IMG/VR virus record: IMGVR_UViG_3300030060_003910
Span: 30,355 to 94,354 of that record
Length of the DNA: 64,000 bases
Strand: one strand, 5' to 3'
From: a virus
This document shows, piece by piece, positions 3,776 to 61,726 of this stretch. Position 1 is the stretch's first letter. Each line of letters begins with the position of its first letter. A model generated the notes under the pieces. It had not been told where the DNA came from. It made no database searches and saw only the letters and a list, made by a program, of their open reading frames with translations. A program made the position numbers and the translations under genes.

Positions 3776-3789
3776 TAGAAGGAGATGAA

Positions 3790-4867: not shown

Positions 4868-5096
4868 TTGGGTCTATCTAGCAAACGCTATGTGGACTTA
4901 TTCAGAAAGAAATGAAGGAAAAATCAGTATACTTCTAAAACAACTGATTAAAGAAATAAATAATAATAAGGAGATGATTGAAAATGACATGGGAAAATAT
5001 GAGCAGAATGCTACAAGCAACAGACCAATTGACACCGACTCAACAAATAAGTCGGATTTCAAGAGACTTGGAAACATTCACGACGGAGAAGAATAG
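4854..5096 (+). CDS. hypothetical protein (3' end overlaps the ligase)
   Basis: SD GGAGAGG; fills the 4867-4984 gap. Confidence 0.45.
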   Translation: MKKSDWVYLANAMWTYSERNEGKISILLKQLIKEINNNKEMIENDMGKYEQNATSNRPIDTDSTNKSDFKRLGNIHDGEE

Positions 5097-6896: not shown

Positions 6897-7336
6897 TTCA
6901 ACAAGGAGAAATGACAATTATTGATGCAATTACTTACAGGTGTTTAAAAATTGATGAAGATGGCTATGCTCATCTAAAAAATATTCTGCATGAACAAGGC
7001 CGACCTAAGTTAGTTTTACAGAAGTATTGTCCTTATATTAAGGATAATCAAATCATTGTTCCTGAAAAGCCTGCCTATAAGAAACCAAAACCTACCACTA
7101 AAATTAATGTAACTCAGTTAATTAAAGAAACAACCGACCTTCAAGTTTCAAATGAGGCAAAATATTTTATTACTCAATGGGTTGAAACAGCGATTGCCAA
7201 CCTTATTAGCAACGCAGAAGAAAACGCAATTGAAAGGGGAGAGTCTCGCTTAACGGCCGCTCACTTCTTTTGGCTTGAAACAAATACTGCACCTAATGGT
7301 TATTGGCCTTCAAATACACAATATATGCAGGACTGA
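6893..7336 (+). CDS. protein with a C-terminal histone fold and a small N-terminal beta domain
   Basis: INVTQLIKETTDLQVSNEAKYFITQWVETAIANLISNAEENAIERGESRLTAAHF aligns by eye with archaeal histones (RIIK..A.RVSDDA...A...GRKTIKAEDI). Confidence 0.65.
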   Translation: MIQQGEMTIIDAITYRCLKIDEDGYAHLKNILHEQGRPKLVLQKYCPYIKDNQIIVPEKPAYKKPKPTTKINVTQLIKETTDLQVSNEAKYFITQWVETAIANLISNAEENAIERGESRLTAAHFFWLETNTAPNGYWPSNTQYMQD

Positions 7337-7341
7337 TATTT

Positions 7342-7737
7342 ATGTATAGTAAAGATATGCTAATTGGTATCTTACTAACTGCTGGTAAGTTGGATTTTAA
7401 TATTGAAAGAGCAAGTGATTCTCAAATTGGTTATCGTGTAAGAGTGAAAATTATCCTTCGTGCTGAAGAATCATTTCTTAGGGCCGTTGAAAGAACGCTT
7501 TTTCAACATGAGATTACTTCTTCTTACAAAGAAAAAGAGTCAAAGACAAGACCAAAGCCCATTCTAAAGATTGGCGGAATCAAAAATCTGTATAAATTGA
7601 CAGAATTGGTTCCTGTATTACCTGACGCAAAAGGAGACTGGGGAACATTTAGAGAACTGGTTGAATTAATATCAGAGAATAAACATAGAACATCAAGTGG
7701 ACTTGATAGAATATTTGAATTGAAAGGGGTCATTTAA
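7342..7737 (+). CDS. degenerate single-motif LAGLIDADG protein (probably catalytically inactive)
   Basis: MLIGILLTAG helix, SQIGYRVRVKI, and C-terminal KHRTSSGLDRIFELK typical of LAGLIDADG endonucleases; no acidic catalytic residue. Confidence 0.6.
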   Translation: MYSKDMLIGILLTAGKLDFNIERASDSQIGYRVRVKIILRAEESFLRAVERTLFQHEITSSYKEKESKTRPKPILKIGGIKNLYKLTELVPVLPDAKGDWGTFRELVELISENKHRTSSGLDRIFELKGVI

Positions 7738-8591
7738 TGGGACTAACAAATAGAAATAATGATAATAGAACAATCCTACTAACAGGCAAAACTGGAACTG
7801 GAAAATCAATAAAGGCACTTACTTTCGTAAATGACCCAATCGTTCTATATGCAAACGACATTGATTTTGATGTAGGTTCATTTCCTGTGGAGAACGGAAT
7901 CGTTATTGAAGATGTGCATTACAAACCTGATAAGTCAGCAATCTTGCACATCATACGCAATTATCGTGGTCAAGTAGTATTGACTTCTATTAACCAAAAG
8001 TCTGTTCCCAAAGAAATTAAGGATATGTGTAAAATCAAAAGAGCAGGTTCTCATAATTTCCTTGAGGAAGAAATTAAAGCAATTGCTCCAAATAGCGAAA
8101 GTCCTTTCTCTTTAGATAGAGATACTTATTCTATTGTGAACGGTTTTCTTAAGGAGAGAAATAGAGATTTGGTCGCTGAAATTTTACTGTTTAACAAACC
8201 ATCAGATACACAGATTCTATCGTGGTTGTCTGAAAATATGCACCCTAACAGATTAATTTTTGTTGATGGAAGAGTTAAGCGAAGATGGAGTCAAAGATAC
8301 TTTTATGAGATGCTTGCCTATTCTCATACAGGTTCTTTTGTTGGACAATTAAATATGCCAAAAAGAAGAGCATATTCACAAATACCAAAACTAGCAAGAA
8401 GACTTGGTGTTAAGAACCAAAGACTTCTTCCTGCTTTATTGAAAGATGAAGCGTTTAAAGAACAGGCAAAAAAGAAACTTAACAATGCCGAATGCCGATT
8501 GCTTAAAATCGGTGAGAAACGGCGTAGAAAGAAAACTACACCTATTGTAATAACACAAACATCATTAGGTGATTTTATGAAGGATGGATAA
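7737..8591 (+). CDS. rfcL: clamp loader (RFC) large subunit-like protein
   Basis: Walker A GKTGTGKS, IVIEDVH, C-terminal PIP box QTSLGDF; adjacent to RFC small subunit. Confidence 0.65.
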   Translation: MGLTNRNNDNRTILLTGKTGTGKSIKALTFVNDPIVLYANDIDFDVGSFPVENGIVIEDVHYKPDKSAILHIIRNYRGQVVLTSINQKSVPKEIKDMCKIKRAGSHNFLEEEIKAIAPNSESPFSLDRDTYSIVNGFLKERNRDLVAEILLFNKPSDTQILSWLSENMHPNRLIFVDGRVKRRWSQRYFYEMLAYSHTGSFVGQLNMPKRRAYSQIPKLARRLGVKNQRLLPALLKDEAFKEQAKKKLNNAECRLLKIGEKRRRKKTTPIVITQTSLGDFMKDG

Positions 8592-8593
8592 AT

Positions 8594-8827
8594 ATGCCAA
8601 GAGGAACTCACGGATTTAGCATGGCTATAGAAGAAATAATTAAATTGATTAAGAAAGAGGGGCCACTACCCACCGAAGCAATAAAGATTAAAATTGAAAA
8701 TATTCCTAGACTCAAAAATACTAGAATAACTTCAAATCGTATTGGTCAGTATCTTCGTAGAATGCCCTTTTTTGTTGTTGAAAAACAGCCAAACGGAACA
8801 AAAATATATGGAATAATGGAGGAATAA
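8594..8827 (+). CDS. small winged-helix DNA-binding protein
   Basis: IIKLIKKEGPLPTEAI...TSNRIGQYLRR...beta hairpin. Confidence 0.55.
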   Translation: MPRGTHGFSMAIEEIIKLIKKEGPLPTEAIKIKIENIPRLKNTRITSNRIGQYLRRMPFFVVEKQPNGTKIYGIMEE

Positions 8828-43545: not shown

Positions 43546-44898
43546 TCAAAGGAGATTGGTAATCTTTCCTTGACCCTTGAAGTAAGAACAGCCAGTCTCA
43601 GCCATTGTGCGGTAAAGAGCCTTGTTTCCAAGGTTGCCAACACCGAATGGGTTTCCGTTGCTGATACCGTCTTCAAAGTATTGTGTAGGCTTCATCACAG
43701 ATAGCCACAAATGGTCAGTATCAAGGAAAAGCATATCGCTGATTAAAGAACTGTTTGTTCCGGTAGAAGGCATAGCGGCAACAGGAATCAAAGGAATGTC
43801 GTAGTAGGTAGAAACACGGAAACCGACTTCTTGACCCTTAACACCACGAACACCGTTCACGGTTGGAACGATTTCCTTTCTATCCATAAATCGCTCTTGA
43901 GCCTGAAGCAAGTCAGAAAGCGTTTGAAGCGTATCATATCCCGTAAGAATGACCTTTGGCGAACCACCAGCAACACGGAGTCTGCGAACCATATCGTTGA
44001 TAACGGTAAGCGTTAATTGTCGTGCTTCTGCGGAGGTATAGCCAGCACCGAAAGAAACTTCTGCATCCAAATACTCGTTGCCCGAAGCACTTCGGAGTTT
44101 TCCGTAAAGAGTGTCAATTTGTTGGTCAGATGCACTATCAACGAGGTTTCCACCAGAATTGTCAGCCAATTCGGTAATCTCAGCCGAGTTAGAAACAATC
44201 TTCATAAGAGAAGTGTAGCCTCTATCAATGGCATTTGCCGTATTGTAAGCCGTTGTTGGAGAATAGTTCTCTAATGGCATAACAAGCATAGTGTTTTGAA
44301 CTTCAGCGTGATGCTTCCCCATATCCTCTCTCAATTGAGCGCGAATATCACCGATACCATCATCAATTTGAGCCATTTCCATAGCCAATTCGCTGAAAGC
44401 GAATTGATGAGCGATGATTTTTGGACTCGTAAAGAGCGTATCGTATTCGGGAGCAATTGATTGAAGACCATCCGAATCCGAATCTAATGATGCGTTTTCT
44501 GGAACACCACCAATTCGGTCTGCTCTTAAAGCATCAGCACCATAAAGTGCAGTATTAAGAGTAGTGTTGGAAGCGGCAGAAATGTCCAAAAAGTTTCCAG
44601 CACCACCAGCAGGACGCTTCTTGAGGATTCTCCAACCACTTGAAGAATAAGGTCGCTTTGCGATAACAGACAATGCGTTGCATTCTCGGTTTAGCATAGA
44701 CCAGACTTTTTGGCCGTAAATTTTGTTGTAAAGGTTTGCGTTAATACCCGTTGGGTCGCTTAACGAACCATCGTGAGCGACATGAATGCCGCTAACGGTT
44801 CCTGCGGCTTTTAGCAATTGATTGCTAATATGCCCGGTTGCGCCCGTTCCGTATGTTGCTGCTTCTAAATCTGCAATAGTGTTAATATATCCTACCAT
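43546..44898 (-). CDS. major capsid protein (HK97 fold)
   Basis: Follows protease/scaffold; PKIIAHQFAFSEL, GGSPKVILTG, YDIPLIP, MLFLD, GQGKITNL. Confidence 0.85.
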   Translation of the reverse strand: MVGYINTIADLEAATYGTGATGHISNQLLKAAGTVSGIHVAHDGSLSDPTGINANLYNKIYGQKVWSMLNRECNALSVIAKRPYSSSGWRILKKRPAGGAGNFLDISAASNTTLNTALYGADALRADRIGGVPENASLDSDSDGLQSIAPEYDTLFTSPKIIAHQFAFSELAMEMAQIDDGIGDIRAQLREDMGKHHAEVQNTMLVMPLENYSPTTAYNTANAIDRGYTSLMKIVSNSAEITELADNSGGNLVDSASDQQIDTLYGKLRSASGNEYLDAEVSFGAGYTSAEARQLTLTVINDMVRRLRVAGGSPKVILTGYDTLQTLSDLLQAQERFMDRKEIVPTVNGVRGVKGQEVGFRVSTYYDIPLIPVAAMPSTGTNSSLISDMLFLDTDHLWLSVMKPTQYFEDGISNGNPFGVGNLGNKALYRTMAETGCSYFKGQGKITNLL

Positions 44899-44909: not shown

Positions 44910-46148
44910 TCAAAGGTTTCCTCCAACCATTTTATGAATGTCAGCCCAATCCATTTCGGCTAATTCTTCCATAGTAGGGAGTTTGATTTGGGCTTCTTCT
45001 TGAGCCTTAATAATGTTGTCTCTTTCAGTCGTCAAAGACTTTCGGAGGGAAGCAAATTCATTCTTAAGAGAAGCAATTTCGGAAGCCGCATCATATTGCG
45101 ACTTTGCGAGAATGTTCTCTCTTTGAGAAGTTTCAGCCTTAAAGCGAGCCTCAAACTGCTTTTGGAGGTTGTCGTAAGCCAACTTCTCCAATTGCTCTTG
45201 ACGGAAAGCATCGTAAGCCTTCTCAATGTTAGCAACGCTCAAATCAAGCGTTTCTAACTCATTGTTGTTAAATGCCTTAACAACGGGCAAGTCGGAAGCC
45301 TTTGGTCGGCCCCCTTCAATGATGATTCTGTCAGCAGGTTCTCCAATTTCAACACCTGCGCCATCAAGAGTAGGAACATAGGCTTTGGCTTCATCATCCA
45401 TGTATTCACCCATGCCTTTTTCTTCCATCATCTTGTCTTTTTCAGACATCATCTTGTCTTTTTCAGACATCATTTTGTCTTTATCCATTAACTTTTCCGA
45501 CATCATTTTTTCGTCGTCCATGTCCATGCTTTCTTCTTCTTCCTTTCTCAGCATATTGACTTCCTCCATAAGAGCGTCAAGTTCTGCCAATGCTTTTTCA
45601 ATTTTGGTCATATTTTTCACCTTTTTTGTTTTTTCTTGCTTTAAAATGTCAAACTTTGCTTCTGGATTAATTCCTTTTTCACAAATAGTGACTTCATGTA
45701 ATTCTAACTTTGAAATTTCGTTGTATTGTCCAAATTCATTATTGGTTTTCTTTACTTTTTCTAAAGCCTGTCCTCCAATACTAAAACTTCTTAATGAACC
45801 TTTTCTAATGCCTCGGTTAATTTCTTTGGCTTTTTCAATATCATCTCTTAATTTGATTACAACAAAGAATCCTACATCATCAACTTCTGTTTTGAATAGT
45901 CTCCCTGATTTATCTCGGTATGATTTAACGACTTCTCCGACTTGAACATTTGAATGATTTGTCATTACATTTCTAAACTTTGGGTTCTCCATGTATTTAT
46001 TTACCGCTTCTTTAAGGGCTTTGAGTGTGATTAAATCATTTTGCTTATCAACGATTTCAATGCTTGCATATCCTCCAATCATCAAGTCGTCTTGGCTTTT
46101 AAGAATCCTGAAATCGTGAGCGTTGTTCTTCATCACCGCAGAAGTCAT
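44910..46148 (-). CDS. prohead protease (HK97/U35-like) fused to a scaffold domain
   Basis: IGGYAS...DKQND, NHSN..VGEV, LRSFSIGG, LHEVTI...NPEA; coiled-coil C-terminal half. Confidence 0.88.
   Translation of the reverse strand: MTSAVMKNNAHDFRILKSQDDLMIGGYASIEIVDKQNDLITLKALKEAVNKYMENPKFRNVMTNHSNVQVGEVVKSYRDKSGRLFKTEVDDVGFFVVIKLRDDIEKAKEINRGIRKGSLRSFSIGGQALEKVKKTNNEFGQYNEISKLELHEVTICEKGINPEAKFDILKQEKTKKVKNMTKIEKALAELDALMEEVNMLRKEEEESMDMDDEKMMSEKLMDKDKMMSEKDKMMSEKDKMMEEKGMGEYMDDEAKAYVPTLDGAGVEIGEPADRIIIEGGRPKASDLPVVKAFNNNELETLDLSVANIEKAYDAFRQEQLEKLAYDNLQKQFEARFKAETSQRENILAKSQYDAASEIASLKNEFASLRKSLTTERDNIIKAQEEAQIKLPTMEELAEMDWADIHKMVGGNL
45426..45482 (-). repeat. 21-nt tandem repeat (about 2.7 copies) encoding DKMMSEK
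   Basis: CATCATCTTGTCTTTTTCAGA repeated on the + strand. Confidence 0.8.
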
Positions 46149-46178
46149 TCTTCTCAACCCCAACTACCTATTATCCAG

Positions 46179-49763: not shown

Positions 49764-50009
49764 TCACTCCATCTTTGAAACCATCTTGTGAATATCCGAC
49801 CAATCCATGCTAGAAACATCAGTAGATGGTAATGTGTCAAAACCACCAACAGTATTATCCATAGCAGGTGTTGGGCTTTGTGAAACAACAAGACCAGCCT
49901 TCATCAAAAGACTGTCTTTTGCGTAGATTGTTTTTTCTAACGCTTCAACCTTTGCGGTTAAAGCCTTAATAATTTCTAAAACATCTTTGTTAATACTTTC
50001 TTCTGTCAT
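49764..50009 (-). CDS. small coiled-coil protein ending in the scaffold-like motif MDWSDIHKMV
   Basis: Motif shared with the protease/scaffold C-terminus. Confidence 0.7.
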   Translation of the reverse strand: MTEESINKDVLEIIKALTAKVEALEKTIYAKDSLLMKAGLVVSQSPTPAMDNTVGGFDTLPSTDVSSMDWSDIHKMVSKME

Positions 50010-50013
50010 AATA

Positions 50014-50268
50014 TCACATTCCAAATTTAGCCTTGCACTTATCTCTTTCTTTCATATATTCTTCTTCGGACATTCCGCCCATTCCAAATTTCTTATTCAA
50101 ACGGTCTATACAGGCAAGATAACTTTGAGCATCTAAAGTGCTTCCTCTCATAGGTTTTCTTCTGCTTTCGCCTCTAAATCCTGCTGAACTCATTCCCCTT
50201 GCTTTTGATACTTCATTACAGTCATTACAACCGCAACCGCATGCCTTTAAAATTGTTTTCCAACTCAT
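50014..50268 (-). CDS. W-x-x-ILK leader protein, Cys-rich
   Basis: MSWKTILKACGCGC. Confidence 0.65.
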   Translation of the reverse strand: MSWKTILKACGCGCNDCNEVSKARGMSSAGFRGESRRKPMRGSTLDAQSYLACIDRLNKKFGMGGMSEEEYMKERDKCKAKFGM

Positions 50269-50453
50269 TTCTTATCCTCTCCTTTGTAAAAAGACTGAAC
50301 TAATTTATTATATTCTTTTTGATATTTAGGAATTGTAGCAAAATCCATGCTTACTCCTGCCCTTCCTTCTGGATTATATTTATCCATCATTATTTGAGTA
50401 GCCTTAGTCTGTGCTTCGTCATAGGACATTTTAAGAATATTTTGCCAACTCAT
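50265..50453 (-). CDS. W-x-x-ILK leader protein
   Basis: MSWQNILKM. Confidence 0.65.
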   Translation of the reverse strand: MSWQNILKMSYDEAQTKATQIMMDKYNPEGRAGVSMDFATIPKYQKEYNKLVQSFYKGEDKK

Positions 50454-50815
50454 TGCTTTTTCTCTCCTTTTCCTCTTGGATGAATTAAATCTCGTAATTG
50501 ACGATAGAGCAATTCATACTCCTTACGCAACTTCGTAGCAGTAGCGACAATATCAATGTTGCGTTCATCCATTGACTTCATTTTCTTGTTTAACTTCTTA
50601 TCTGATTTAATTAGTTCTAATTCTCTAAGAGTAGAAATAAGTTCACCTAGTTTAGTAAAATCTTGACCAAAAAATTCGGTGGGTTCTGCGGCTTGAAGTG
50701 TTTTCTTTAACTTCTTTCTTCCTTTAGCATCCAAAGAATCAAGGAGTTTCTTAGGCTCCTGTTTTTTCTCTTTTAGAATAAAATCATTACCCTCTCCATA
50801 ATAGTCCCAAGTCAT
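50450..50815 (-). CDS. hypothetical helical protein
   Basis: ORF track; MTWDYY...FILKE. Confidence 0.65.
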   Translation of the reverse strand: MTWDYYGEGNDFILKEKKQEPKKLLDSLDAKGRKKLKKTLQAAEPTEFFGQDFTKLGELISTLRELELIKSDKKLNKKMKSMDERNIDIVATATKLRKEYELLYRQLRDLIHPRGKGEKKQ

Positions 50816-52476
50816 CACTCTTCCTCCTTTGGTGGGTCTTTAAAAACCCTCTTGGATTCTTTTGTTCGTAATTCTTTCGGCTTTCTATCCTTAATTTTAC
50901 TCTCAATGAAATTAACAACTTCTTGTAGTTCTTCCGCTTTCTCTTCATATTTTTGAGATAATTCTTCAAACTTTCCTACGACATCTACATCAAGTGTAGG
51001 TGCGCCTTCAAAGAAACCTCCATCTGCTTCTATAACCAGTTTAGTATCAGGATTGCTTTCCAAATATCCCATTAATCCTTGTTCAATATCGCCTTCCGCT
51101 TTAGAACTAAGCCTTTCCATCTGTTTAGCATATCTACTTAAATCAAAAGCAATATTGGCTCCCTTAGTTAATTGTTCTTTAATTTCAGGTAGGGGGTCGC
51201 TTTGTTTAAATATGTTTAAAAGAGTGCTAAATTCTTTCAAAGTAGGGTTCAATCTATCAAAAGCATCCAAATCTACTTGAATCCTTTCTAATTTTCTTTC
51301 TTCAGCACGAAGTTCTTTTTGAAGTTCTTCCTTAGCATCTCTAATGTGCTTTTCTCTATTGCTATCAATATCTTTAATCATCGCACTAATCTCTTTAATT
51401 GAAGCAATTTTCTTTTCTCGGTTTCCCTTGCTTCCCGAAGCAATAACTCTTCGCAAGGCTTGATTTAATTTTTTAACCTGTCTAGCAACTAAATCATCTG
51501 GATTTTTGATAATCTCTCTAATGCTGTCTATTTTTTCTTCAATAAATACTTTTGTGTTCCTAATAGTAGCAGAATATTTTTGTGTAGCCTTAATTCTTCT
51601 TAATGCCCTTTCGTATTCTCTATTACCAGCCGCATCAGTTGTTCTCTTTTTGGCTCTTTGTAGCATACGAAGTCTTTCGTCTTTTACCTTCTTTCTAGGA
51701 ACTAAAGTTCTTGGCTCTCTCTTCCATCTTTGCTTATGAATAGTTCTAAAAACTTCTAAGAAACCAATCTTTTCCCCATCAACATCAAACTCAGTATTTA
51801 CAATATCGTTGAGTAATCCCTGTAAGTCTAATACATTAATATCTTCGCCCTTTTTAACTTGTTCTCTACCTTGTTTTGTATATTTATACATTGTTCCTGA
51901 AAGAACTCCATCAACTAAAAGCGACCCGTATTCATCTTCCAAAAAATTACTGTTGTCCTTCAGTCTAGTTAAGAAACCTAATAAACTGCTAGAATTAGTA
52001 GAAGTAGAACCTAATCTTGAATAACTTTGCATAACGCCTCTAACGACGAGTTTTCCATCTTTTCTTGATATTCTTGCATCAGAAGATATTTCCATCAAAA
52101 TATCTGCTTGGAAACTTAGATTTGATAAAATTTTGTAGGCGCTTTCTTCTTCAACAGACCTACTAAACTCTTCACCATATCTATTTTCTGCGATTCTAGC
52201 ATCTATTTGTGCCTGTTCATCAGCACTATCAACAGGAGCAGAATAACTTTCTTCTTCACTTGCTCTTGCAGAACCCGCTTCATCATCTTCTTGCTTGGCA
52301 ATAGCAATATATTTACGATAAGCAATCATATTTTGGGGATTCATATTCTCAATCAAAGATGCTTTGATTAAAGAGGCATTAGCCATTTCCTTAACCAACA
52401 TAGATGTATTTTCATCTAACTTTGCTTTGCTTAAAACATTAAGCAAAGATTTATCTTTGGCTAATTCAAAAAACAT
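50815..52476 (-). CDS. large coiled-coil protein
   Basis: 553 aa; GAGGT SD. Confidence 0.7.
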   Translation of the reverse strand: MFFELAKDKSLLNVLSKAKLDENTSMLVKEMANASLIKASLIENMNPQNMIAYRKYIAIAKQEDDEAGSARASEEESYSAPVDSADEQAQIDARIAENRYGEEFSRSVEEESAYKILSNLSFQADILMEISSDARISRKDGKLVVRGVMQSYSRLGSTSTNSSSLLGFLTRLKDNSNFLEDEYGSLLVDGVLSGTMYKYTKQGREQVKKGEDINVLDLQGLLNDIVNTEFDVDGEKIGFLEVFRTIHKQRWKREPRTLVPRKKVKDERLRMLQRAKKRTTDAAGNREYERALRRIKATQKYSATIRNTKVFIEEKIDSIREIIKNPDDLVARQVKKLNQALRRVIASGSKGNREKKIASIKEISAMIKDIDSNREKHIRDAKEELQKELRAEERKLERIQVDLDAFDRLNPTLKEFSTLLNIFKQSDPLPEIKEQLTKGANIAFDLSRYAKQMERLSSKAEGDIEQGLMGYLESNPDTKLVIEADGGFFEGAPTLDVDVVGKFEELSQKYEEKAEELQEVVNFIESKIKDRKPKELRTKESKRVFKDPPKEEE

Positions 52477-52485
52477 TTAAAAACC

Positions 52486-52710
52486 TCAAAAAGGAATATT
52501 TTCTTTCTTTCCTCTTTTCTTTGATGGTAAAAGAATAACATCAGGATTATCAGCAGAAGAAGGTAATGTCTTGTGAGAAGTATCGGGAGGCAAACCAACA
52601 GACATATCTCTGTTCTTTTGCTTCTTATTGTTTTCTTGAGAAGTCAAAGCCTTAACTTTGGCTAACTCTTTTGTCAATCTTCTTTGCTTTTGGTGTAAAT
52701 CTTCACTCAT
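52486..52710 (-). CDS. hypothetical protein
   Basis: GGAGG SD, ATGA overlap. Confidence 0.55.
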   Translation of the reverse strand: MSEDLHQKQRRLTKELAKVKALTSQENNKKQKNRDMSVGLPPDTSHKTLPSSADNPDVILLPSKKRGKKENIPF

Positions 52711-53012
52711 ATTTTTTCCTCCAAACTTCCCTGTGTTCTTTCTAAAATAGCAAGTAATTCTTCTTTGGACATTTTACTGATTCTTTTAATGACCATAGGA
52801 AATAAATCCTTTCTTGTCATTTCAGCAAGATTAGCCATATCTTCATCAAACATAGTGTCTAAATCACCACTTTCACCCATAGATGGAGAAGGTTTCCCAC
52901 CTGCAATTTTAACAGGAGGCTTTCTTCTTTGCGGCTTTCTTGGGTTTCTACTAGGGTCTAATTCCCTAATAGGGCTTGTTCTTGCCTTAATAATTGCTTC
53001 CCATTCATTCAT
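52707..53012 (-). CDS. W-x-x-IIK leader protein
   Basis: MNEWEAIIKA. Confidence 0.6.
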   Translation of the reverse strand: MNEWEAIIKARTSPIRELDPSRNPRKPQRRKPPVKIAGGKPSPSMGESGDLDTMFDEDMANLAEMTRKDLFPMVIKRISKMSKEELLAILERTQGSLEEKI

Positions 53013-53013
53013 T

Positions 53014-54654
53014 TTAACCAACTCTTCTTTCTGTCCTTGTGTCAGTATTTTGATTTCCAGCCTCTAAGGGCAAACCCGCCATTCTCTTATCTGGGCCTAC
53101 GCTCATTCTGCTTTTATTCCTTGTGGCGGGAGGGTTCTCTTGGGGCTTGCCTCCGCCTTGTATGGCCTGTTCTTGCATCTGGCCCAATTGTGAAGCATCA
53201 ATGTTTGTCCCTGCATACGGGTCAGGCGTTGCTTGCTCCCCCTCACCTTCTGCTGGTGGTTTTTCTTCGGGTTCAGGCTTTTTGAAAGTAAATTGTCCAT
53301 CTTCGTCCATATCAACCTCAAAGCCTAAGTTCTTTGTTGATGCAGCAATATTAACTTCAATTTCACGCTTACGAAGAACAGCAATTTCATCCTCTTCTTC
53401 GCTCGGTGGTAATTTCAAATTCCAATCGGTAATACCAAATTGCTTTACAAGGAATGGGAAAACATAATTGTTATAGACAGTTTGTGCTTTTTGAACGGCT
53501 CTATTTGTGACTAAAATCTGCATACCTTCATTGTTTAATCCACCGCTTGTAGTATTATCAGCCATGAATACTTTGCTTACACCATAAAAAGCAGAAATTC
53601 TATCTCTTAAATCGTCTTTCACAGAAACATAATCCATTTCCTTGAGACTATCCATGAACTTAATCCATTCAACAGCCCCTTTACCGCTTTCTGCTTCAAT
53701 TCCCATAACGGGGATGAAGTGGGGGTCGGCTTCCATCTTTTCTTTAACCGACCTCCAAAACGACCTCATAGAGTCCATGTTTCTTGTCTGAACTGCAAGC
53801 AAACCTCTCGGCATTCGGCTCTTTGTGTAGGATTGATTGACATAATTCTCCATAGCAATAAGTGTCATAATGTTGTTAAATAAAGTAATAACTGGAGACA
53901 TACCATAAAGACGAGAAGGACTATATTTACTAAAATGTAATACCTCTCCTTTTAAGAAATGCTGGTCTTCTCCTTTAACTCTATTAACATAATGAACAGG
54001 AAATAGACTACTACCACAAACTTCACATTTTTCATGTGGGTCTTTGTGAATAACACCACGATGATTTACACAGGTAAATCCTTTGGTTCCCCTTTGTCCG
54101 TTTTCATCACTATAAATAAACATTGTAACTGGGTCGCCACGATAAACTTCTTTGATACGATGCATTCTTATTTTACCATTACCGTCAATAAAGTATTCTT
54201 TAACAAGAACAATATAAGCATCATCCATAATATTTAAATCATCTTCAAGTTCCTGTAAAACATCAATAAACAACTGCTCAGACTTATTTACATAGCCTTC
54301 AATAAACTTCTCAGCATATTCTAATTGTTTAACATCAGGAATCTTAAGGTCAGCACTTTTACAACGAGAACATTCTTGAACAGGTCTTTTATGTTCTTTA
54401 CCACAATTATTACATCGTGCTTCATATGCTTTTTCCCAAATATAGCCTCTTCTAAATACTTCTTGCTTTAATTGAGTAATACAAGTTCTAGCAATAACTG
54501 ATTGATTGACAATATTATAGATGATTGGGCCAGTCATCATGTGATTGGTTTCTCTTTCTTGAATACCCATGTTATAGACTTTTCTATCAGCAGGTTTGGG
54601 AGTTTGTCTCCTAAACAGATTAGTAATGCTGAATCTTCTTTTTTCTTCAACCAT
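53014..54654 (-). CDS. portal protein with Zn-ribbon insertions
   Basis: EVLHF...YGMSP, MPRGLL, MDY..DDLRDRISAFYGV; CNNC/CSRC and CVNH/CEVC. Confidence 0.88.
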   Translation of the reverse strand: MVEEKRRFSITNLFRRQTPKPADRKVYNMGIQERETNHMMTGPIIYNIVNQSVIARTCITQLKQEVFRRGYIWEKAYEARCNNCGKEHKRPVQECSRCKSADLKIPDVKQLEYAEKFIEGYVNKSEQLFIDVLQELEDDLNIMDDAYIVLVKEYFIDGNGKIRMHRIKEVYRGDPVTMFIYSDENGQRGTKGFTCVNHRGVIHKDPHEKCEVCGSSLFPVHYVNRVKGEDQHFLKGEVLHFSKYSPSRLYGMSPVITLFNNIMTLIAMENYVNQSYTKSRMPRGLLAVQTRNMDSMRSFWRSVKEKMEADPHFIPVMGIEAESGKGAVEWIKFMDSLKEMDYVSVKDDLRDRISAFYGVSKVFMADNTTSGGLNNEGMQILVTNRAVQKAQTVYNNYVFPFLVKQFGITDWNLKLPPSEEEDEIAVLRKREIEVNIAASTKNLGFEVDMDEDGQFTFKKPEPEEKPPAEGEGEQATPDPYAGTNIDASQLGQMQEQAIQGGGKPQENPPATRNKSRMSVGPDKRMAGLPLEAGNQNTDTRTERRVG

Positions 54655-54707
54655 GAATCACACCCCCTGTTTTAATGCTACGCTATCCTCGCCTATGAAC
54701 GCTTCGG

Positions 54708-54941
54708 TTATGGTTGCCCGCTATCCTCAATGTCATACCTTTCGTTGCTTGAACGCAACATTTCTTCTAAAATACCCTTTAAATAAGCCGCCCTATTTTC
54801 AGGTCGCTTAAATCCTAATTTTAAATAGTAAATAACCATTCTTTTATTAATGTCTGCTAAGTTGGAAAACTTAACATATTTTTTCCTATCTCTAGGTAAT
54901 TCATCATTTAAGATTCCACTTTTAAGTTGTTTCCAACTCAT
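54708..54941 (-). CDS. W-leader protein
   Basis: MSWKQLKSGILN. Confidence 0.5.
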   Translation of the reverse strand: MSWKQLKSGILNDELPRDRKKYVKFSNLADINKRMVIYYLKLGFKRPENRAAYLKGILEEMLRSSNERYDIEDSGQP

Positions 54942-54952
54942 TTTATTTTTAA

Positions 54953-55117
54953 TTAATAGGGTTTGGTCCATAGTAAAGCCTCATCAATTCTGCAAGTAAA
55001 ACATCTGTTGCTAATTGTTTCTGTTTTACACTTTCTACAAACAGTCGCGTATCTAATTTTTTTAGGTAGTTTAGTTCTTACTTTGTGTTTAAAAATATCG
55101 TAGTGCTTGCGAGGCAT
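54953..55117 (-). CDS. small Zn-finger protein (54 aa, not in ORF track)
   Basis: MPRKHYDIFKH...CRKC...CFTC...KPY*; TAATG overlap. Confidence 0.5.
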   Translation of the reverse strand: MPRKHYDIFKHKVRTKLPKKIRYATVCRKCKTETISNRCFTCRIDEALLWTKPY

Positions 55118-55671
55118 TAGCAATTCCACCTTCTTCTTGCGGCTCTTGCTTTTTCGCTGTAAGTTCCATCTGCTCGCTTAAATCCTCTTGACCTTGCACA
55201 AAAAGATTTACGCCTCTTTGCTGCTTTGCTGCCTCTTTTTAACTTACTTGGTTTAGTAGTAACTGGTGGCTTTAAATTAGAACCCTGTTCACGCTTAAAC
55301 TTGGCACGACCTTTAGCACTTAATCCACCCGTTCTTGCGTGAATTTTTTTATTATAGCCCTTAAAGGGTTTCTTTTTCTTTTTAAGAATCTTTTCAATAT
55401 CTTCTGGTTTATGAGTGTAAATATCTCCATCTTCGTGCATAAAGATTTTACCTTCCTTTCTTAACTTAGATAGGGCTTGTTTAATTTCGGCTTCCTTACC
55501 AAACTGCTTTAGGTTTTTCATTCCTAATGCTCCGCCTTCTTTTTCAATTTCTCTAAGAATTTGACGCTCTAATTTTGACGCTTTCATTCTAGGACTAATA
55601 TTCATAAAATCAGTCATTTCATCAGGGTCTTGTTCAAATGGTTTTTTCAATATATCTTGCCAGTTAGTCAT
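55117..55671 (-). CDS. W-x-x-ILK leader protein: wHTH-like segment plus basic SFCAR...RRWNC domain
   Basis: MTNWQDILKK; internal EKILKK; GGLSAKGRAKF...RRKSFCARS...ARRRWNC. Confidence 0.75.
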   Translation of the reverse strand: MTNWQDILKKPFEQDPDEMTDFMNISPRMKASKLERQILREIEKEGGALGMKNLKQFGKEAEIKQALSKLRKEGKIFMHEDGDIYTHKPEDIEKILKKKKKPFKGYNKKIHARTGGLSAKGRAKFKREQGSNLKPPVTTKPSKLKRGSKAAKRRKSFCARSRGFKRADGTYSEKARAARRRWNC

Positions 55672-56239
55672 ACTTATCACCTATCATATAGCCTAATTTT
55701 TTTCCTGCTTCAATGTCGCTTGGATAATGACTTCCCATTTGTATTCTTGATAAAGAAATTTTGTCAGCCATTTCTTTGAGTTCTTTCTTTTTATCTGGAT
55801 ATTTTTTTCCTAATACTTTTTCTAAACCATGAGCAAGCATTGAATGTCCACTTGGAAATGCAGGAGTATCGTCTGTTTTTGTTTTTGTTGTTTTTATTTT
55901 ATCAGATATTTGATGAGGTCGTGGTCTTTGATATTTCATTTTAAGCGTCATGGCATAATAGTTAATGTCCTTCATAAAGTCCATATAATTATTTTTATCT
56001 TCACCTACAATCTTAAACATTTCTACATCTGGTTTTAAATCAGAATCTTTCATTTGCTTAGGAGTTATCCTTTTCTTTCTCATTGTTGCTATTACAGAAG
56101 GTATTTCTTTTTCTTCTTGAGGGTAACTTAATTTAGGAATATCTATTTTCATTTTTGGACTTCTTTCTAATATTTTTCTTTTATCTTTTGAAAGTTTTCC
56201 TTGCCATTTTCTTTTCTTAAGAATAGAAAACCAAGTCAT
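55664..56239 (-). CDS. PAP2/vanadium-haloperoxidase superfamily phosphatase with W-x-x-ILK leader
   Basis: KxxxxRPRP, FPSGHS, SRIQMGSHYPSD; starts MTWFSILKK. Confidence 0.88.
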   Translation of the reverse strand: MTWFSILKKRKWQGKLSKDKRKILERSPKMKIDIPKLSYPQEEKEIPSVIATMRKKRITPKQMKDSDLKPDVEMFKIVGEDKNNYMDFMKDINYYAMTLKMKYQRPRPHQISDKIKTTKTKTDDTPAFPSGHSMLAHGLEKVLGKKYPDKKKELKEMADKISLSRIQMGSHYPSDIEAGKKLGYMIGDKYD

Positions 56240-56577
56240 TTTTTCATCCTCTCGGTTTTTCTTTTACTTGATTCTTTTCTTGATAATGCTACCTTGTGTG
56301 CCGCATTTAGTCTCTTTTTTGTTTCGGGGTCTTTTGCTCTTTTTGCTGCAACTCTTGCCCTTTGTTCAACTAAATTAATAATTTGTGATTGTCTTTTATG
56401 TGGCTTTGATTTGAATGATGAACTTGAAAATGTTTCTCTTACATCTTTTGCAGTTTTGAATTTAACAGGAACAGTATCTTTTGGATTTTCGTCTGTATAT
56501 AATCTTCTTGCTGAACCTTTAGGTTTCTTTCCCGTTCCTTTCTTTGGGTCTTTCTTTAGAATATTAACCCAATTCAA
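56236..56577 (-). CDS. W-x-x-ILK leader protein, basic (RRLYTDENPKDT domain)
   Basis: MNWVNILKK; TTG start. Confidence 0.7.
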   Translation of the reverse strand: MNWVNILKKDPKKGTGKKPKGSARRLYTDENPKDTVPVKFKTAKDVRETFSSSSFKSKPHKRQSQIINLVEQRARVAAKRAKDPETKKRLNAAHKVALSRKESSKRKTERMKK

Positions 56578-57104
56578 GGTGAACCCTTCCTTCGTTTATA
56601 GGTCTTACAAGCAGCGCAAGTCGGCCTACATCTTCTTTTTGTTCCTTTAGATGCATCCTTTCTTCCGCAAGGCTTTGGCCCATCCTTTGAACCACATGAA
56701 CCACAATCAATCCACCCTCCTTGCGTTTTTCCTCCTTTAGATTCTTTTCCGCCTCTTCTTGAGAACCAACCATGAAGACCTTCACTTTTCTCTCTTTTGA
56801 AATTATCTCCACCTTTACGGAACATTTGTTCATATAAAAGGTCATTTTCTTTATAACAGTTCTCATTATTCTCTAAAATTCTATCTATTTCTTTTTCTTG
56901 CTCAGGAGTAAATTTTCCGTTGCGTATTACTTGACCAAAATAAAAGCCCATCTCGTCGCAACTTATTGTCGCAATTCTATTTAAAGCGAAGGTAGGGGCT
57001 GCTCTATAACTTTCCATAAAATCTAAAATATCTCGTCTATAATTATCACAACACAATTGACTAGCATCAAAAGTGAGACGCTTAAGAATTTTTTTCCAAG
57101 ACAA
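56574..57104 (-). CDS. W-x-x-ILK leader protein: CC...SCDE...C module plus basic Cys domain (WF...WIDC...PCGR...CRP)
   Basis: (M)SWKKILKR; TTG start at 57104. Confidence 0.7.
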   Translation of the reverse strand: MSWKKILKRLTFDASQLCCDNYRRDILDFMESYRAAPTFALNRIATISCDEMGFYFGQVIRNGKFTPEQEKEIDRILENNENCYKENDLLYEQMFRKGGDNFKREKSEGLHGWFSRRGGKESKGGKTQGGWIDCGSCGSKDGPKPCGRKDASKGTKRRCRPTCAACKTYKRRKGSP

Positions 57105-57109
57105 GATAA

Positions 57110-57271
57110 TCACTTCTTTTTGGATTTATTTCCCCAATTTGCAGCACCGACTTTACGGCAACGGACAAGCGCACCTGAAGCGTATGCAGAAGGCCATTTC
57201 TTATAACGGCTTCGCACTTTATGATAACAGGCATCTTTTTCTTTCTTTAATTCTTCAAACCATAACGACAT
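57110..57271 (-). CDS. small basic W-leader protein (53 aa, not in ORF track)
   Basis: MSLWFEELKKEKDACYHKVRSRYKKWPSAYASGALVRCRKVGAANWGNKSKKK*. Confidence 0.7.
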   Translation of the reverse strand: MSLWFEELKKEKDACYHKVRSRYKKWPSAYASGALVRCRKVGAANWGNKSKKK

Positions 57272-57275: not shown

Positions 57276-58886
57276 TCACAACCCTATGTTTCCATATTTT
57301 TCAATATAATGCTTAATATATTTCTGCATTCTTCCAATTGCATAACTATAATTTTGACCAGACTCATACATCATATCAGCGAGTTTTAACTCTTTAAATA
57401 TTTTTTGACCTTCATTATCTAATTTTTCTGGTTTATTTTCTAAAAGTTTTTTAGTGGTTGAGATGATGTGGTCTACTTCTCTATCGCCTAAATTTTTCTT
57501 TTCTCTTAGATATGGATTTGAACTTTTAACAATTGTTCCAATGTTCTCTAAAGAGTCCATAACCGACATTTTACAATTGTCTTTGTATTTCTGTATATCA
57601 TCCAAGTAAATACCTTCCTTTAACCAATCAAAACCTACATGGTCTTTATGATTCTCCCACTTCATTAACTTGAAAATCTCATCACAACGGCCTTTATACC
57701 AATCGGCCTTCTTATATGACTTCTTCATGCGAATCAATTCAAGCAATAATTCAGCGTTGCCCTTTTTAAGACGAAAGTGAGGAAGACAATTCTTTAACAA
57801 TTTAGAAACATCATCCTGTGAATAAAAATTTAATCTATTAATTAAACGGGTTGCTTGTGGAGATTTCTGGTCTAAATGCATTCTACCGAAACCAAGAGAC
57901 TTATGCATTTCTTGCATAAAAGCCTTACCTCTTTCTCCCGTTGCGACTAATCCTACTCTTGGATTCATATTGCGGTCAAGTGTAATATAACCATCGGAGT
58001 CAATAAATGCAGCAGTATAAGCCCAAATGTTTTTCTTAATCATAGATGGAACTTTATAGTAAGAACCCTTAACTGAAGTAATGTCTAATTTCTTGATTGC
58101 CTTTGAGATTGAATTGGCACTTGATGACTTGTGTAAATCAGTAGGCATTCTTTCATGTATAGCAGAAGCATTAATTCCTGGATTTTCACAAACCATTTTT
58201 ACAATAAACTCTTGCTTTCTTTCCCTCTTTGATTTCGTAAGTGATTGGTCAGTAATCTTAGATATAACTTTTCTAAAATCTTTTTTAGCAGAAGACATGG
58301 TTTTGTGAAGTTCACTATACTTTTGGTTATAGGGCATTCCAGTCTGCTCTAATTCTGCTTCCCAGTATTTACAAAGAGCATCAATTGTTTCTCTTCTCAA
58401 TTCAGAACTCTTCATCTTGTGAAGTTTAGATAAATCTTTTTCATTATATCTCATTTTTCTTAAAGGAGCCTCATAATCATTTAACCAAGTAATAGAAGTA
58501 ATACACTTATTTAAATGGTCTGTATAAGCATCAATCATTGTATCAATTGCTTTAGACATTCGTGTTCGGTGTTCCCCCTTTAATGCACGACGAGACTTTC
58601 TCATCTTTCTAACTAAGTCTGGAATGGTGTGTTCTTGAACAATATATTCACTTGGAAAAGAGGCTAATTTTTTTCTTGCATCACTAGCATTAATATTGAA
58701 AGCAGAAGACAATTTGGTGATTTCTTCATGCTCAGACATTACATAAGAATTGCTAAAAATACTCTTCAATTCAGTATCTAACTGTTCCTCTATGGTATCT
58801 TTAACTTGTTCTTCTTCTTCATCTAAATCGGCTAAACGGTTCATTTGTTCAGCCGCTTGACGGTATTTATCTGCCTGTTCTGTCAT
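57276..58886 (-). CDS. coiled-coil, wHTH and LAGLIDADG endonuclease-domain protein
   Basis: ENPGINASAIH (wHTH); YTAAFIDSDG; LPHFRLKK. Confidence 0.75.
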   Translation of the reverse strand: MTEQADKYRQAAEQMNRLADLDEEEEQVKDTIEEQLDTELKSIFSNSYVMSEHEEITKLSSAFNINASDARKKLASFPSEYIVQEHTIPDLVRKMRKSRRALKGEHRTRMSKAIDTMIDAYTDHLNKCITSITWLNDYEAPLRKMRYNEKDLSKLHKMKSSELRRETIDALCKYWEAELEQTGMPYNQKYSELHKTMSSAKKDFRKVISKITDQSLTKSKRERKQEFIVKMVCENPGINASAIHERMPTDLHKSSSANSISKAIKKLDITSVKGSYYKVPSMIKKNIWAYTAAFIDSDGYITLDRNMNPRVGLVATGERGKAFMQEMHKSLGFGRMHLDQKSPQATRLINRLNFYSQDDVSKLLKNCLPHFRLKKGNAELLLELIRMKKSYKKADWYKGRCDEIFKLMKWENHKDHVGFDWLKEGIYLDDIQKYKDNCKMSVMDSLENIGTIVKSSNPYLREKKNLGDREVDHIISTTKKLLENKPEKLDNEGQKIFKELKLADMMYESGQNYSYAIGRMQKYIKHYIEKYGNIGL

Positions 58887-58895: not shown

Positions 58896-60326
58896 TCAAA
58901 AGTTCAAGCCTATGGTGGACGAATAACCCTGTTGTGGCCGTTGTGGAGCATCGCCAAACAGCCCTAAATCGTCAAGGAGTATGAAGTTATCCGTGGCTTG
59001 GTAAGTGGCCGCATTCGCTAAGGCAAGGCTCATCACCATATCGTCATGCGCCCCGATTCCCTCAAACTTCCCTCGTTCAGTAATCGCAAACATTGACATT
59101 TCTTCAATCAATAACGAAGAAACTTTTCTGCTCTCTTCGTTGCCGTATGGGAAGTTAATCTTCCCGTTTTCAAGAGTCATTTGTAAATTAAGAATAATCT
59201 CCTGTTTCTTTCTTCGGGTTGTATCAAAGTCGTGAACATTTACATCAGCAACTTGACGAAGTTCTTGAGTAAAGGATTTAGCGAATGTGTTTGTTTCAAA
59301 CAGGATAACCTCTGGTCTAAACACTTGATTTAGCAGTTTCACCTTTTGAATATTCTCACGGAACTGAACATTCTTTGCTCGGTCAATATACACAATAGAT
59401 TTATTTTCGTTCTCATCCATTTCAAGAACAGTAATCACATTGTAGTCTCCATCAGTAGAAATAGCAGGGTCTACGCCTATGAAGTATTTATACCCTTCAC
59501 GCTTTAGTGGCTTCAGCACTAAATCTTTATTCTTAGCATTGTCTAAATGTTCGGGATTAAAGAGAGAAGTTCCTGTTGAAATAGGCACACACATATATTC
59601 CCGTGTGAACATTAATGAACCGACTTCTGCCTTACGAGCCATCAACGCCTCATAGTTCCAACGGTCAGGCCACAACGGTTCGTTTAGTGCATTTAAACAA
59701 GGGTAGGTTCTAACAGTATATGCAGCGTTTTCTGACAATTGTTGGTAAATATCTGTATAACTGAACGGCGTTCCAATAACACGCAAAGATGCGGTATGGT
59801 GAAGTGTTGGAATCATATCGCCGTAAAACCAATCAGTCACTTTTTGAATACCTGTCATACTAAACTCTTTCAAAGGGTCGTCAATAACAATCTCTTGAGG
59901 GTGAAGTCCACGAATCTGTGAACCAACCGACCTCTCAAGGATTTGGTTTCCATTGGTCAATGTAATGTTTCCAATAGCCCAACCTCTTGCGGGTTTAAAT
60001 TTCTTGAGCATTGGGTGGGTGAACATCTTATCAATGTCTCTCATGTGAACGAGAGTCTGCTTTTGGTTAGAAGAAATGTAAAGCATTTGATATGGTGGCT
60101 CTTCAAAGATTAACTTCCATACGACCCAACTGTGCATGAATACAGATTTACCGTGGTCACGGGAACAGATAATAACTGTTCTTTGAGTAGTGTTCATTAA
60201 TTCGTGCCATTCTTGAATGTAGGAAGGAAAGTCAAAACCTAATACATTTTGAAAGAAGTATGGAAATGAATTGCGGGACAATTGCATATCCATTTCATGT
60301 TCAAAATTGAAGGCTTCTAATTCCAT
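58896..60326 (-). CDS. terL: terminase large subunit
   Basis: CSRDHGKS, IRGLH, IVIDDP, VIGTP, IGVDPA, HDDMVMSLALA. Confidence 0.93.
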   Translation of the reverse strand: MELEAFNFEHEMDMQLSRNSFPYFFQNVLGFDFPSYIQEWHELMNTTQRTVIICSRDHGKSVFMHSWVVWKLIFEEPPYQMLYISSNQKQTLVHMRDIDKMFTHPMLKKFKPARGWAIGNITLTNGNQILERSVGSQIRGLHPQEIVIDDPLKEFSMTGIQKVTDWFYGDMIPTLHHTASLRVIGTPFSYTDIYQQLSENAAYTVRTYPCLNALNEPLWPDRWNYEALMARKAEVGSLMFTREYMCVPISTGTSLFNPEHLDNAKNKDLVLKPLKREGYKYFIGVDPAISTDGDYNVITVLEMDENENKSIVYIDRAKNVQFRENIQKVKLLNQVFRPEVILFETNTFAKSFTQELRQVADVNVHDFDTTRRKKQEIILNLQMTLENGKINFPYGNEESRKVSSLLIEEMSMFAITERGKFEGIGAHDDMVMSLALANAATYQATDNFILLDDLGLFGDAPQRPQQGYSSTIGLNF

Positions 60327-60337
60327 TATAACACCCC

Positions 60338-61720
60338 TCACTTTTCAGGCAGTTTCATCGCTGCGTTTTTATATTCTTGATATTTTCTTTTATATTCACT
60401 TTCTAATGACTGAATTTGAGAAGTTAGTTTATCTTTATCAGTAGGTCTTGTTTTCTTTTCTCTCTTAGTTTTAAGATTTTTAATTTTATTAAGAGTTCTC
60501 TTCCTATAACTCTTCCATGTTTCAAATGCTTGTTCTGCTGTTGTAGCAGCATCAAAGATAGTAGATGGGCCAGTTTTTGCTCTTTTTTGTTGTCCTATGT
60601 TAAAAACATTACGAGTATCTCCTGCTGGACTAATTGTTGTTTCTTCCTTTAAACCACTATCCCATATGTCAATAAATTGAGCATAAGAAGGTGGTTGCAT
60701 CCATGTATTTGTATTAGGGTCTTTGATTCTTATTGATTCAAGAATAAATCTCTTTTCTAGCATATCTCCTCTTGGCAAAATAACTTTTGCATCAACATGA
60801 GACAAATCGTTTTCATCTGAAACACAATAAAACCAGATTTTATTTTTTGGTTTAGCAGTTAATAGGTCGTCAGGTTGTTCTCTTAATAGAGAAATCCATT
60901 CTTCTATCATATTAGTTCTATTAAAGTGCAACCAAAGAAAATTTTTAAAACTACCTCTTTCTTCGCCTTTATCTTGATAATGGCCTGTTATCATAGTATT
61001 GTGAACAGAACTGTATTTTCCACCAGTTCCCGTTCTTTTGTCTGCTGGAACAAATTTTCCTGATGGCCCCTGTGAACTAAAACTGCCATCTGGCCTCCAC
61101 TTAAGAACCTCTTTCCAAGACTTTTCAAAGGTCGGGAATTTTTCTTTTTTCTTTTTGTTTCGCAATTTAAAAAGACTGAACCATGATGGAGTAGGGTCGT
61201 CAAGATAAACACACTTCGCAAACTCTCCCTTTCCACGAATATTACGAATAGCCCAATTGCCATTAGGGTATGCGCTATTCCATTCATTTACTACCGACTC
61301 AGGAAGTAATTGTTTCATTTGTTCCCAGTTCTCACTATCGGGGAAAGACCATCCGTTCTTTTTTGCAGTAGCAATCCAACGGGCATTATCTCCATCCCTA
61401 TGTCCAAAAGCGGCAACCAAGGGTTTAGATTGATTTAACTGTGGTTCTCTTGCATCCTGTAATGCGCGATTATTTCCACCAATTTGCCTTCCTTCTGCCG
61501 TAGCATACATTCCACCGACAACAGTATGTGATGGGTGTTCTTTGAAACCAACTGTTGATATTGCCTTATCTTCATCATTTACACGAATAAGCCAATTATC
61601 TAAAGCATAAAGACCAGTCTCTAAATCCTTTCTGCGAGTATAAGGGTCGTCAGGATTATCCTGAGCAAACCTTCTTTTCATATCTTCATATGAAAAGATA
61701 GCAGGAAGAACTTTAACCAT
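60338..61720 (-). CDS. multidomain protein with an N-terminal GNAT-like domain and internal W-x-x-x-x-K motifs
   Basis: AISTVG...VGGMYATAEGRQIG...AKKNGW; SWFSLFKL and SWKEVLKW. Confidence 0.55.
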   Translation of the reverse strand: MVKVLPAIFSYEDMKRRFAQDNPDDPYTRRKDLETGLYALDNWLIRVNDEDKAISTVGFKEHPSHTVVGGMYATAEGRQIGGNNRALQDAREPQLNQSKPLVAAFGHRDGDNARWIATAKKNGWSFPDSENWEQMKQLLPESVVNEWNSAYPNGNWAIRNIRGKGEFAKCVYLDDPTPSWFSLFKLRNKKKKEKFPTFEKSWKEVLKWRPDGSFSSQGPSGKFVPADKRTGTGGKYSSVHNTMITGHYQDKGEERGSFKNFLWLHFNRTNMIEEWISLLREQPDDLLTAKPKNKIWFYCVSDENDLSHVDAKVILPRGDMLEKRFILESIRIKDPNTNTWMQPPSYAQFIDIWDSGLKEETTISPAGDTRNVFNIGQQKRAKTGPSTIFDAATTAEQAFETWKSYRKRTLNKIKNLKTKREKKTRPTDKDKLTSQIQSLESEYKRKYQEYKNAAMKLPEK

Positions 61721-61726
61721 CAAACA

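Follow-up and report, generated by a model that had tools for sequence, protein, structure and literature searches.

Otherwise unrelated proteins of a marine virus begin with the same eight residues, M-[S/N/T]-W-x-[D/N/E]-I-L-K, and this peptide most likely serves as a portable label by which a rapidly changing set of proteins is loaded into the capsid. The window analysed here, a 64,000-nucleotide stretch (positions 30,355 to 94,354) of the IMG/VR virus record IMGVR_UViG_3300030060_003910, belongs to a genome of 94,354 bp that is complete and terminally redundant; positions below are those of the window unless the genome or another locus is named. As Philosof et al. 2017 (PMC5434244) use the term, the source is a magrovirus. 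With variants counted, approximately 17 of its genes, or about one in six, carry the tag.

A preliminary description of the window had listed nine tagged open reading frames (ORFs) around the portal gene, and all nine starts were confirmed. They lie on the minus strand with a purine-rich, Shine-Dalgarno-like sequence 5' of their starts, which are TTG in two cases (56577 and 57104), and they follow the pattern M-x(0-2)-W-x-x-[I/V]-[L/I]-K, apart from two shorter or degenerate forms, W-K-Q-L-K (54941) and W-F-E-E-L-K (57271), that are retained within their own families in related viruses. Among the 148 candidate ORFs of the whole genome, the strict motif W-x-x-h-h-K (h, hydrophobic) occurs 17 times; 12 of these occurrences are N-terminal, where 0.07 would be expected (Poisson P = 4e-23), a figure that rules out a chance origin. 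All 12 are encoded on the minus strand, which carries the head genes, and a scan of the whole genome found no plus-strand early-arm or replication gene, and no tail gene, that starts with the tag, in agreement with the earlier remark that the early arm shows no such leader. Eight more leader genes lie outside the window at genome positions 545-8620, directly upstream, in the direction of transcription, of the window's last gene, and include proteins of 762, 281, 252 and 218 amino acids.

To related viruses the survey extended through 80 loci with portals 81-99% identical, in which 536 tagged ORFs were found on the portal's strand and 18 on the opposite strand. Stripped of their tags, the encoded proteins clustered into 97 groups, approximately 72 of them genuine tagged families that are mutually unrelated; most are confined to one or a few loci, so that the tagged set is polymorphic among close relatives. 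The family consensus reads M-[S/N/T/K]-W-[K/F/E/Q]-[D/N/E]-[I>V]-[L>I]-K, the residue after K being unconstrained, and an alignment of 68 family representatives gave a mean column identity of 5%, with W and K the only invariant columns and conservation stopping sharply at the Lys. Together with the strand counts, these families bear out the suggestion that a modular N-terminal tag sits on variable, interchangeable proteins across magrovirus genomes, in the head arm only.

The tag is present in a second clade, with a capsid protein 64% identical to that of this virus, and a degenerate DNA scan found contigs in which no kinship to this genome is detectable at the nucleotide level; of four that were followed up, three encode capsid proteins 61-67% identical together with an S78 protease-scaffold. 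One contig from the scan, G001, is a complete magrovirus genome of 102.7 kb (GC content 43%, capsid protein 57% identical) that repeats the layout, with approximately 13 tagged genes in its head arm and none in its tail or replication modules. The tag was looked for and found to be absent from the halovirus HVTV-1 and from five contigs with an approximately 46% identical capsid protein, in which very large proteins (1000-1700 amino acids) fill the region near the portal instead. No description of the tag was found in the searchable magrovirus literature.

At the I, L and K positions of 162 non-redundant leaders, codons are used just as they are in the background of long ORFs, indicating that the constraint acts on the peptide and that the leader is conserved at the protein level, as had been proposed; a DNA-level signal, such as a promoter or a recombination site, is ruled out on the same grounds. 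The same observation bears on the proposal that the tag has no function of its own and is either a relic of common descent or a short patch of homology that aids the exchange of cassettes by recombination. Tagged genes do lie in arrays that are hypervariable, with shuffling and fusion taking place at the tag, but the synonymous codons leave no trace of DNA-level homogenisation, and the bodies are unrelated, yet W and K stay invariant across clades whose capsid proteins are 57-67% identical; we consider a functionless tag highly improbable.

The tag is not confined to N-termini. The 461-amino-acid fusion protein encoded directly upstream of the terminase (60338..61723, minus strand) consists of a GNAT-fold N-domain (61166-61723) and a variable C-terminal module; the N-domain ends in a junction tag, WFSLFK (61166-61183), and beyond a short linker stands a second tag, WKEVLK (61100-61117), 22 residues apart from the first. 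Throughout its family, a conserved N-domain of approximately 180 residues is followed by wholly variable C-terminal parts (total length 189-693 amino acids), with a tag-like W-[F/W]-x-h-h-K at the boundary in every case; at least 90% of family members, down to 25% identity, retain W181 and K186, and several members have extra tags between later modules. In three genomes the C-module of this fusion is a homologue of the free-standing leader protein 54708-54941, joined via W-L-T-L-K, and a systematic search yielded 12 fusions, each with an internal tag immediately followed by the body of a protein that occurs elsewhere as a free-standing tagged one. A fusion in locus L004 runs from a DUF5872-like module through K-K-S-W-F-D-I-L-K into a PAP2 phosphatase body homologous to 55664-56239, and in the leader protein 55117-55671 a degenerate E-K-I-L-K precedes the DUF6321 module, to which relatives join the tag directly. 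The internal copies first noticed in 60338-61723 and 55117-55671 are, by family comparison and by these fusions, genuine module junctions. Because the tag works at internal junctions, a free N-terminus is not needed, which argues against its being a site of N-terminal acetylation, a degron or a signal peptide; internal use fits a docking peptide, a processing site, or both.

An AlphaFold2 model of the N-domain (predicted local distance difference test, pLDDT, 87) matched GCN5, PCAF and NatC in Foldseek (E 1e-5 to 1e-3, template modelling score approximately 0.5). No Pfam model fires on the domain, and its R-Q-I-G-G-N is a partial match only to the acetyl-CoA pyrophosphate-binding motif (Q/R-x-x-G-x-G/A). 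That a GNAT-fold domain ending in the tag is encoded next to the terminase lends some weight to the idea that the tag is recognised by a partner other than the capsid, be it a GNAT-fold enzyme acetylating the Lys or the N-terminus, a chaperonin or a host factor, and that the position of the tagged genes in the head arm simply reflects late expression. The GNAT-domain gene, however, was present in only 21 of the scanned loci and has no match in G001 despite the tagged genes there, so that it is not an obligatory partner of the tag; tags work without a free N-terminus, and a non-capsid partner would leave unexplained the likeness to the scaffold described below. We regard such a partner as improbable.

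The likeness in question concerns the prohead protease of the S78 family, which is fused to a coiled-coil scaffold (44910..46163, minus strand) and terminates in the tail ...EMDWADIHKMVGGNL (W-K at 44931-44948). An 86-amino-acid protein (49764..50024, minus strand) ends in the same tail, ...SSMDWSDIHKMVSKME (W-K at 49785-49802). The last 24 residues of 134 protease-scaffold homologues, representing 85 distinct tails, gave the consensus E-M-[D/S]-W-[S/G/N]-D-I-H-[K/N]-[M/L]-[V/A]-G-G, with W and H invariant and with M, D and I each retained by more than 90%. Tag and tail coincide in register at M, W, D/N/E and I, and in 56% of the tails at K as well. Distant relatives that have no tagged genes nevertheless encode a protease-scaffold ending in [W/F]-x-x-V-H-[D/N]-[M/L] (L083:7756-9987 and L087:7980-9986); the tail is thus the older element, of which the tag looks like a copy, and alignment of the two suggests that the C-terminal tail of 44910-46163 was probably the template. 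L083 and L087 have capsid proteins approximately 46% identical to that of this virus and a GC content of 46-48%; a 1689-amino-acid protein is encoded upstream in L087.

The end of the tag has its counterpart in another protein. Its I-L-K resembles an invariant L-L-K close to the N-terminus of the major capsid protein (SU10_MCP family; 43546..44898, minus strand), where N-x-L-L-K30 (44809-44820) is a candidate maturation cleavage site; L28-L29-K30 is invariant between variable flanks, and in capsid relatives, down to approximately 30% identity, the corresponding position still reads h-x-K and then [A/S/T]-D-x-P. HK97 gp5 is cleaved behind Lys103. The delta-domain (HK97-type) capsid protein of phage phi12 is cut between R128 and L129, and its homologue Ccm from a Staphylococcus aureus pathogenicity island between K87 and Q88, the phage's own protease being the presumed enzyme; the authors remarked that both sites have a basic residue at P1 (PMC8569155). 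The invariant Lys of the tag, the sharp end of conservation behind it and the I-L-K ending are all consistent with a cleavage site of this K/R type.

Proposed borders of the same hydrophobic-hydrophobic-K kind elsewhere did not hold up in this way. In the ligase-like protein, no more than 17-25% of homologues retain them, and generic sites of this kind in the ligase-like, 553-amino-acid, 733-amino-acid and portal proteins were rejected as cleavage marks, most of them not being conserved. FRILK and FDILK, which flank the protease domain, are indeed conserved, but are more simply understood as parts of the protease: going by the limits of the Pfam match, they probably belong to, or adjoin, the first and last strands of its S78 fold. 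They were likewise rejected as processing sites.

These comparisons bear on two simpler accounts. The first holds that the tag only docks, binding the site of the scaffold tail and staying on the protein without any proteolysis, in the manner of encapsulin cargo-loading peptides. It draws on the resemblance to the scaffold tail, itself a terminal peptide that needs no cut, and on one family (50450-50818) that tolerates seven extra residues between W and ILK. Against it, the Lys is invariant in all tags and present in little more than half of the scaffold tails, conservation ends right behind that Lys, the I-L-K end matches the capsid L-L-K, and tags are kept between fusion modules, where a single docking peptide would do. 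We hold this account to be unlikely. The second holds that the tag is a processing site only, at which the prohead protease or another one separates the modules of polyproteins, with head targeting achieved by other means or the proteins not packaged at all. Tags at fusion junctions, a P1 Lys that suits HK97-type proteases and the sharp boundary after K all agree with it; yet removing eight residues from a free-standing protein would be pointless if the tag had no second role, neither the Trp nor the agreement of M-x-W-x-D-I with the scaffold tail would be explained, and the capsid site lacks the Trp. This second account appears to us quite improbable.

We reasoned instead that the tag would combine both functions. 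Its first part, M-x-W-x-D-I, would imitate the conserved C-terminal tail of the protease-scaffold, so that tagged proteins would dock at the site used by that tail, probably on the inner face of the capsid protein and less likely on the portal, and would be enclosed at procapsid assembly; its last part, I-L-K, would probably be a site at which the HK97-type (S78) prohead protease cuts behind the Lys, freeing the cargo inside the head. Such a tag being short and self-contained, any gene that gained it would join the packaged set, which would explain both the fast turnover of unrelated small genes and the reuse of the tag as a fusion joint. Docking, packaging, cleavage and delivery into the host are steps that we infer. 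A head-loading role of some kind, with or without cleavage, is in our judgement probable; for the specific combination of a docking peptide that mimics the scaffold tail with probable trimming after the Lys by the S78 protease, we see the chances as evenly balanced. The fullest version, in which the capsid-binding tail of the scaffold has been turned into a universal eight-residue loading code with a Lys cleavage site, so that any acquiring gene becomes a virion-delivered effector in a rapidly evolving injected arsenal, and this in viruses that belong to the ocean's most abundant archaeal ones, is put forward tentatively, as somewhat doubtful.

Several observations weigh against a combined docking and cleavage tag. 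Magroviruses are uncultured, and the tag is known here from sequence alone. Its likeness to the scaffold tail is partial, the tail having an invariant His at the position of the tag's Leu and a Lys in those 56% of cases only, and the capsid L-L-K site is without a Trp, so that the docking and cleavage halves of the argument lean on different comparators, the scaffold tail and the capsid site, respectively. The AlphaFold2 model of the capsid protein (pLDDT 34) is too poor to place K30 before the N-arm, and the F-x-I-L-K strands of the protease, judged by their position in the fold, are probably structural and lend the tag no support. Some tagged proteins are large (762 amino acids), and approximately 17 species would compete with the DNA for space in the head. 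Finally, near-identical fusions keep their internal tags, perhaps only because the fusions are recent.

If the tag is a loading code, it would flag from sequence alone which orphan genes make virion-borne, first-acting proteins, and these would be candidate counter-defence and take-over factors; it would also mean that a strategy like that of phage T4 arose independently in an archaeal virus with a different protease, and foreign proteins could be packaged in HK97-type shells by means of a minimal peptide. From the resemblance between tag and scaffold tail follows a binding hypothesis specific enough to be tested. To our knowledge, neither an archaeal virus nor any virus that has an HK97-type (S78) protease has been reported to use a loading code of this kind.

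The bodies behind the tags are mostly orphans; approximately 5 of the 68 family representatives have any Pfam match. On their function, searches of Pfam and PHROGs gave almost nothing. Recognisable bodies within the window are one PAP2 phosphatase and basic modules resembling DUF6321 and DUF5872. All leader genes of the window are on the minus strand, and in the direction of transcription the first six precede the portal gene. The first (57110..57271) encodes 53 amino acids, MSLWFEELK followed by a DUF5872-like basic module (phrog_727, E 5.6e-21); the second (56574..57104; 176 amino acids) begins (TTG)SWKKILK and has a Cys-rich, basic C-terminus, and the third (56236..56577; 113 amino acids) begins (TTG)NWVNILK and continues into a basic body. 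In the fourth (55664..56239; 191 amino acids), MTWFSILK leads into the PAP2-superfamily phosphatase domain (PF01569, E 1.6e-12). The fifth (55117..55671; 184 amino acids) joins MTNWQDILK, an insert of approximately 90 amino acids, the degenerate junction EKILK (55381-55395) and the basic DUF6321 module, and the sixth (54708..54941; 77 amino acids) has the short form MSWKQLK. Directly downstream of the portal gene, a 101-amino-acid protein (52707..53012) starts MNEWEAIIK, and its family is present, tag included, in 35 related loci. Two small leader proteins follow farther on: one of 62 amino acids (50265..50453), MSWQNILK, and one of 84 amino acids (50014..50268), in which MSWKTILK (tag W-K at 50245-50262) precedes a Cys-rich body that gave no match in Pfam and PHROG searches. 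Upstream of this pair stands a tenth leader gene of the region (50450..50818), encoding a core head-arm protein of 122 amino acids whose tag, MTW-DYYGEGN-DFILK, is split by the 7-residue insert mentioned above; its homologues in other magrovirus clades start with a canonical MSWxxILK, W, I and K being invariant, and it has a weak match to DUF5677 (27.0 bits, Pfam cut-off 27.1).

The DUF6321 (55117-55671) and DUF5872-like (57110-57271) modules have counterparts inside or at the C-terminal end of far larger proteins of bacteriophages (phrog_10346, phrog_727 and phrog_3477), which marks them as mobile modules common to archaeal and bacterial viruses. In relatives, the tagged proteins include a pentapeptide-repeat protein and some with hints of zinc-ribbon and winged-helix domains, and are otherwise orphans; the 762-amino-acid tagged protein of this genome found no match in an ESM Atlas search. 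The pentapeptide-repeat protein, which starts MWKDILK, is encoded by a related magrovirus (L018:1666-2421; PF00805, E 1.7e-10). Some bacterial members of this family are DNA mimics, making the protein a candidate counter-defence cargo.

The genome is divided into a plus-strand arm (1-22,000) of replication genes and a minus-strand arm of head-assembly and tail genes. In the order of transcription, the minus-strand arm begins with the 733-amino-acid protein, the 461-amino-acid protein, the terminase large subunit, a 536-amino-acid gene, six small genes and the portal, and continues with more small genes and the 553-amino-acid protein, a ligase-like protein of 1001 amino acids, the protease-scaffold, the capsid protein and the tail genes. 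The portal gene (53014..54654, minus strand; PF04860) has leader genes on either side, as does that of the terminase large subunit (58896..60341, minus strand), which matches Terminase_6C below its cut-off (E 5.8e-4, 20.3 bits against 22.6) and has a 71% identical homologue in the corresponding place in G001. The 536-amino-acid ORF (57276-58886) that separates the tagged genes from the terminase gave no match in a Pfam search but contains a LAGLIDADG-like stretch, AAFIDSDGYI, and is a possible free-standing homing endonuclease. The plus-strand arm starts with GroES-like (75 amino acids) and GroEL-like (507 amino acids) genes (989-2736), called by eye only. Genome bases 1-30 are repeated from genome position 94028, at the window's end, so that the record is terminally redundant and probably complete; the array of tagged genes runs on across the record ends. 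Relatives identified by their portal and capsid proteins are marine viruses of approximately 94-100 kb that are not in culture; among cultured viruses, haloarchaeal siphoviruses such as HVTV-1 stand closest. The hosts of magroviruses, the archaea of Marine Group II, are counted among the surface ocean's most abundant microbes.

Several known systems share features with the magrovirus tag. Encapsulin cargo-loading peptides are likewise short terminal peptides on diverse cargo enzymes that bind the inner face of an HK97-fold shell, but they are usually C-terminal, have another consensus, involve no protease and belong to cellular nanocompartments and not to DNA-filled virions; the present genome has portal, terminase and tail genes, and its motif is unrelated to theirs. 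The GNAT-domain fusions recall the MuF polymorphic toxins of temperate phages in joining a conserved, head-associated N-domain to variable C-modules beside the portal or terminase. They differ in that the magrovirus N-domain has a GNAT fold, a Pfam search for the Phage_Mu_F domain finding no match, and in that the tag separates the modules. Giant phages such as phiKZ and SPN3US also have many head-internal proteins, ejection and inner-body proteins with N-terminal propeptides, cut at one motif by the prohead protease (PMC7411985); these propeptides, however, are long (tens to more than 100 residues) instead of being one common tag of eight residues, and their T4-like protease cuts after A/S/G-x-E, with Glu at P1.

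In phages P22, HK97 and SPN3US, C-terminal tails of the scaffold or prohead protease direct entry into procapsids, as does the C-terminal propeptide of SPN3US gp245 (PMC7411985; PMC10275583). The magrovirus tail E-M-[D/S]-W-x-D-I-H is conserved in the manner of these short targeting peptides, found in the P22 scaffold and HK97 gp4 too, but differs from them in that it has apparently been copied to the N-termini of dozens of other proteins. We know of no such tail mimicry in the P22, HK97 or SPN3US systems. A C-terminal targeting signal of the HK97 gp4 protease was reportedly described by Duda et al. 2013 (J Mol Biol 425:2765).

The comparison with T4 made in the preliminary description proved to be the right one, both a shared N-terminal peptide and a polymorphic tagged set being found. 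The capsid-targeting sequence (CTS) of T4 is a 10-residue peptide, with separate targeting and processing positions, on divergent internal proteins, and is presumed to attach to the core of the scaffold and to be removed within the prohead (PMC9026906). Like the magrovirus tag, the CTS of IPI, IPII, IPIII and Alt, removed by gp21, is short, N-terminal and attached to otherwise unrelated, often basic proteins, and the cargo set varies between related phages. The two have no sequence likeness, MKTYQEFIAE being cut after Glu and MSWxDILK presumably after Lys, and neither homology to the CTS nor the specificity of gp21 (L/I-x-E) was found, since the motif and the protease family both differ: the magrovirus enzyme is a Peptidase_S78 of the HK97 type, fused to the scaffold. 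The magrovirus host is, moreover, archaeal, and the tag stands also at internal junctions and appears to copy the scaffold's own C-terminal tail. Judged by motif and protease, the magrovirus tag is an analogue of the T4 CTS and not a member of the T4 system.

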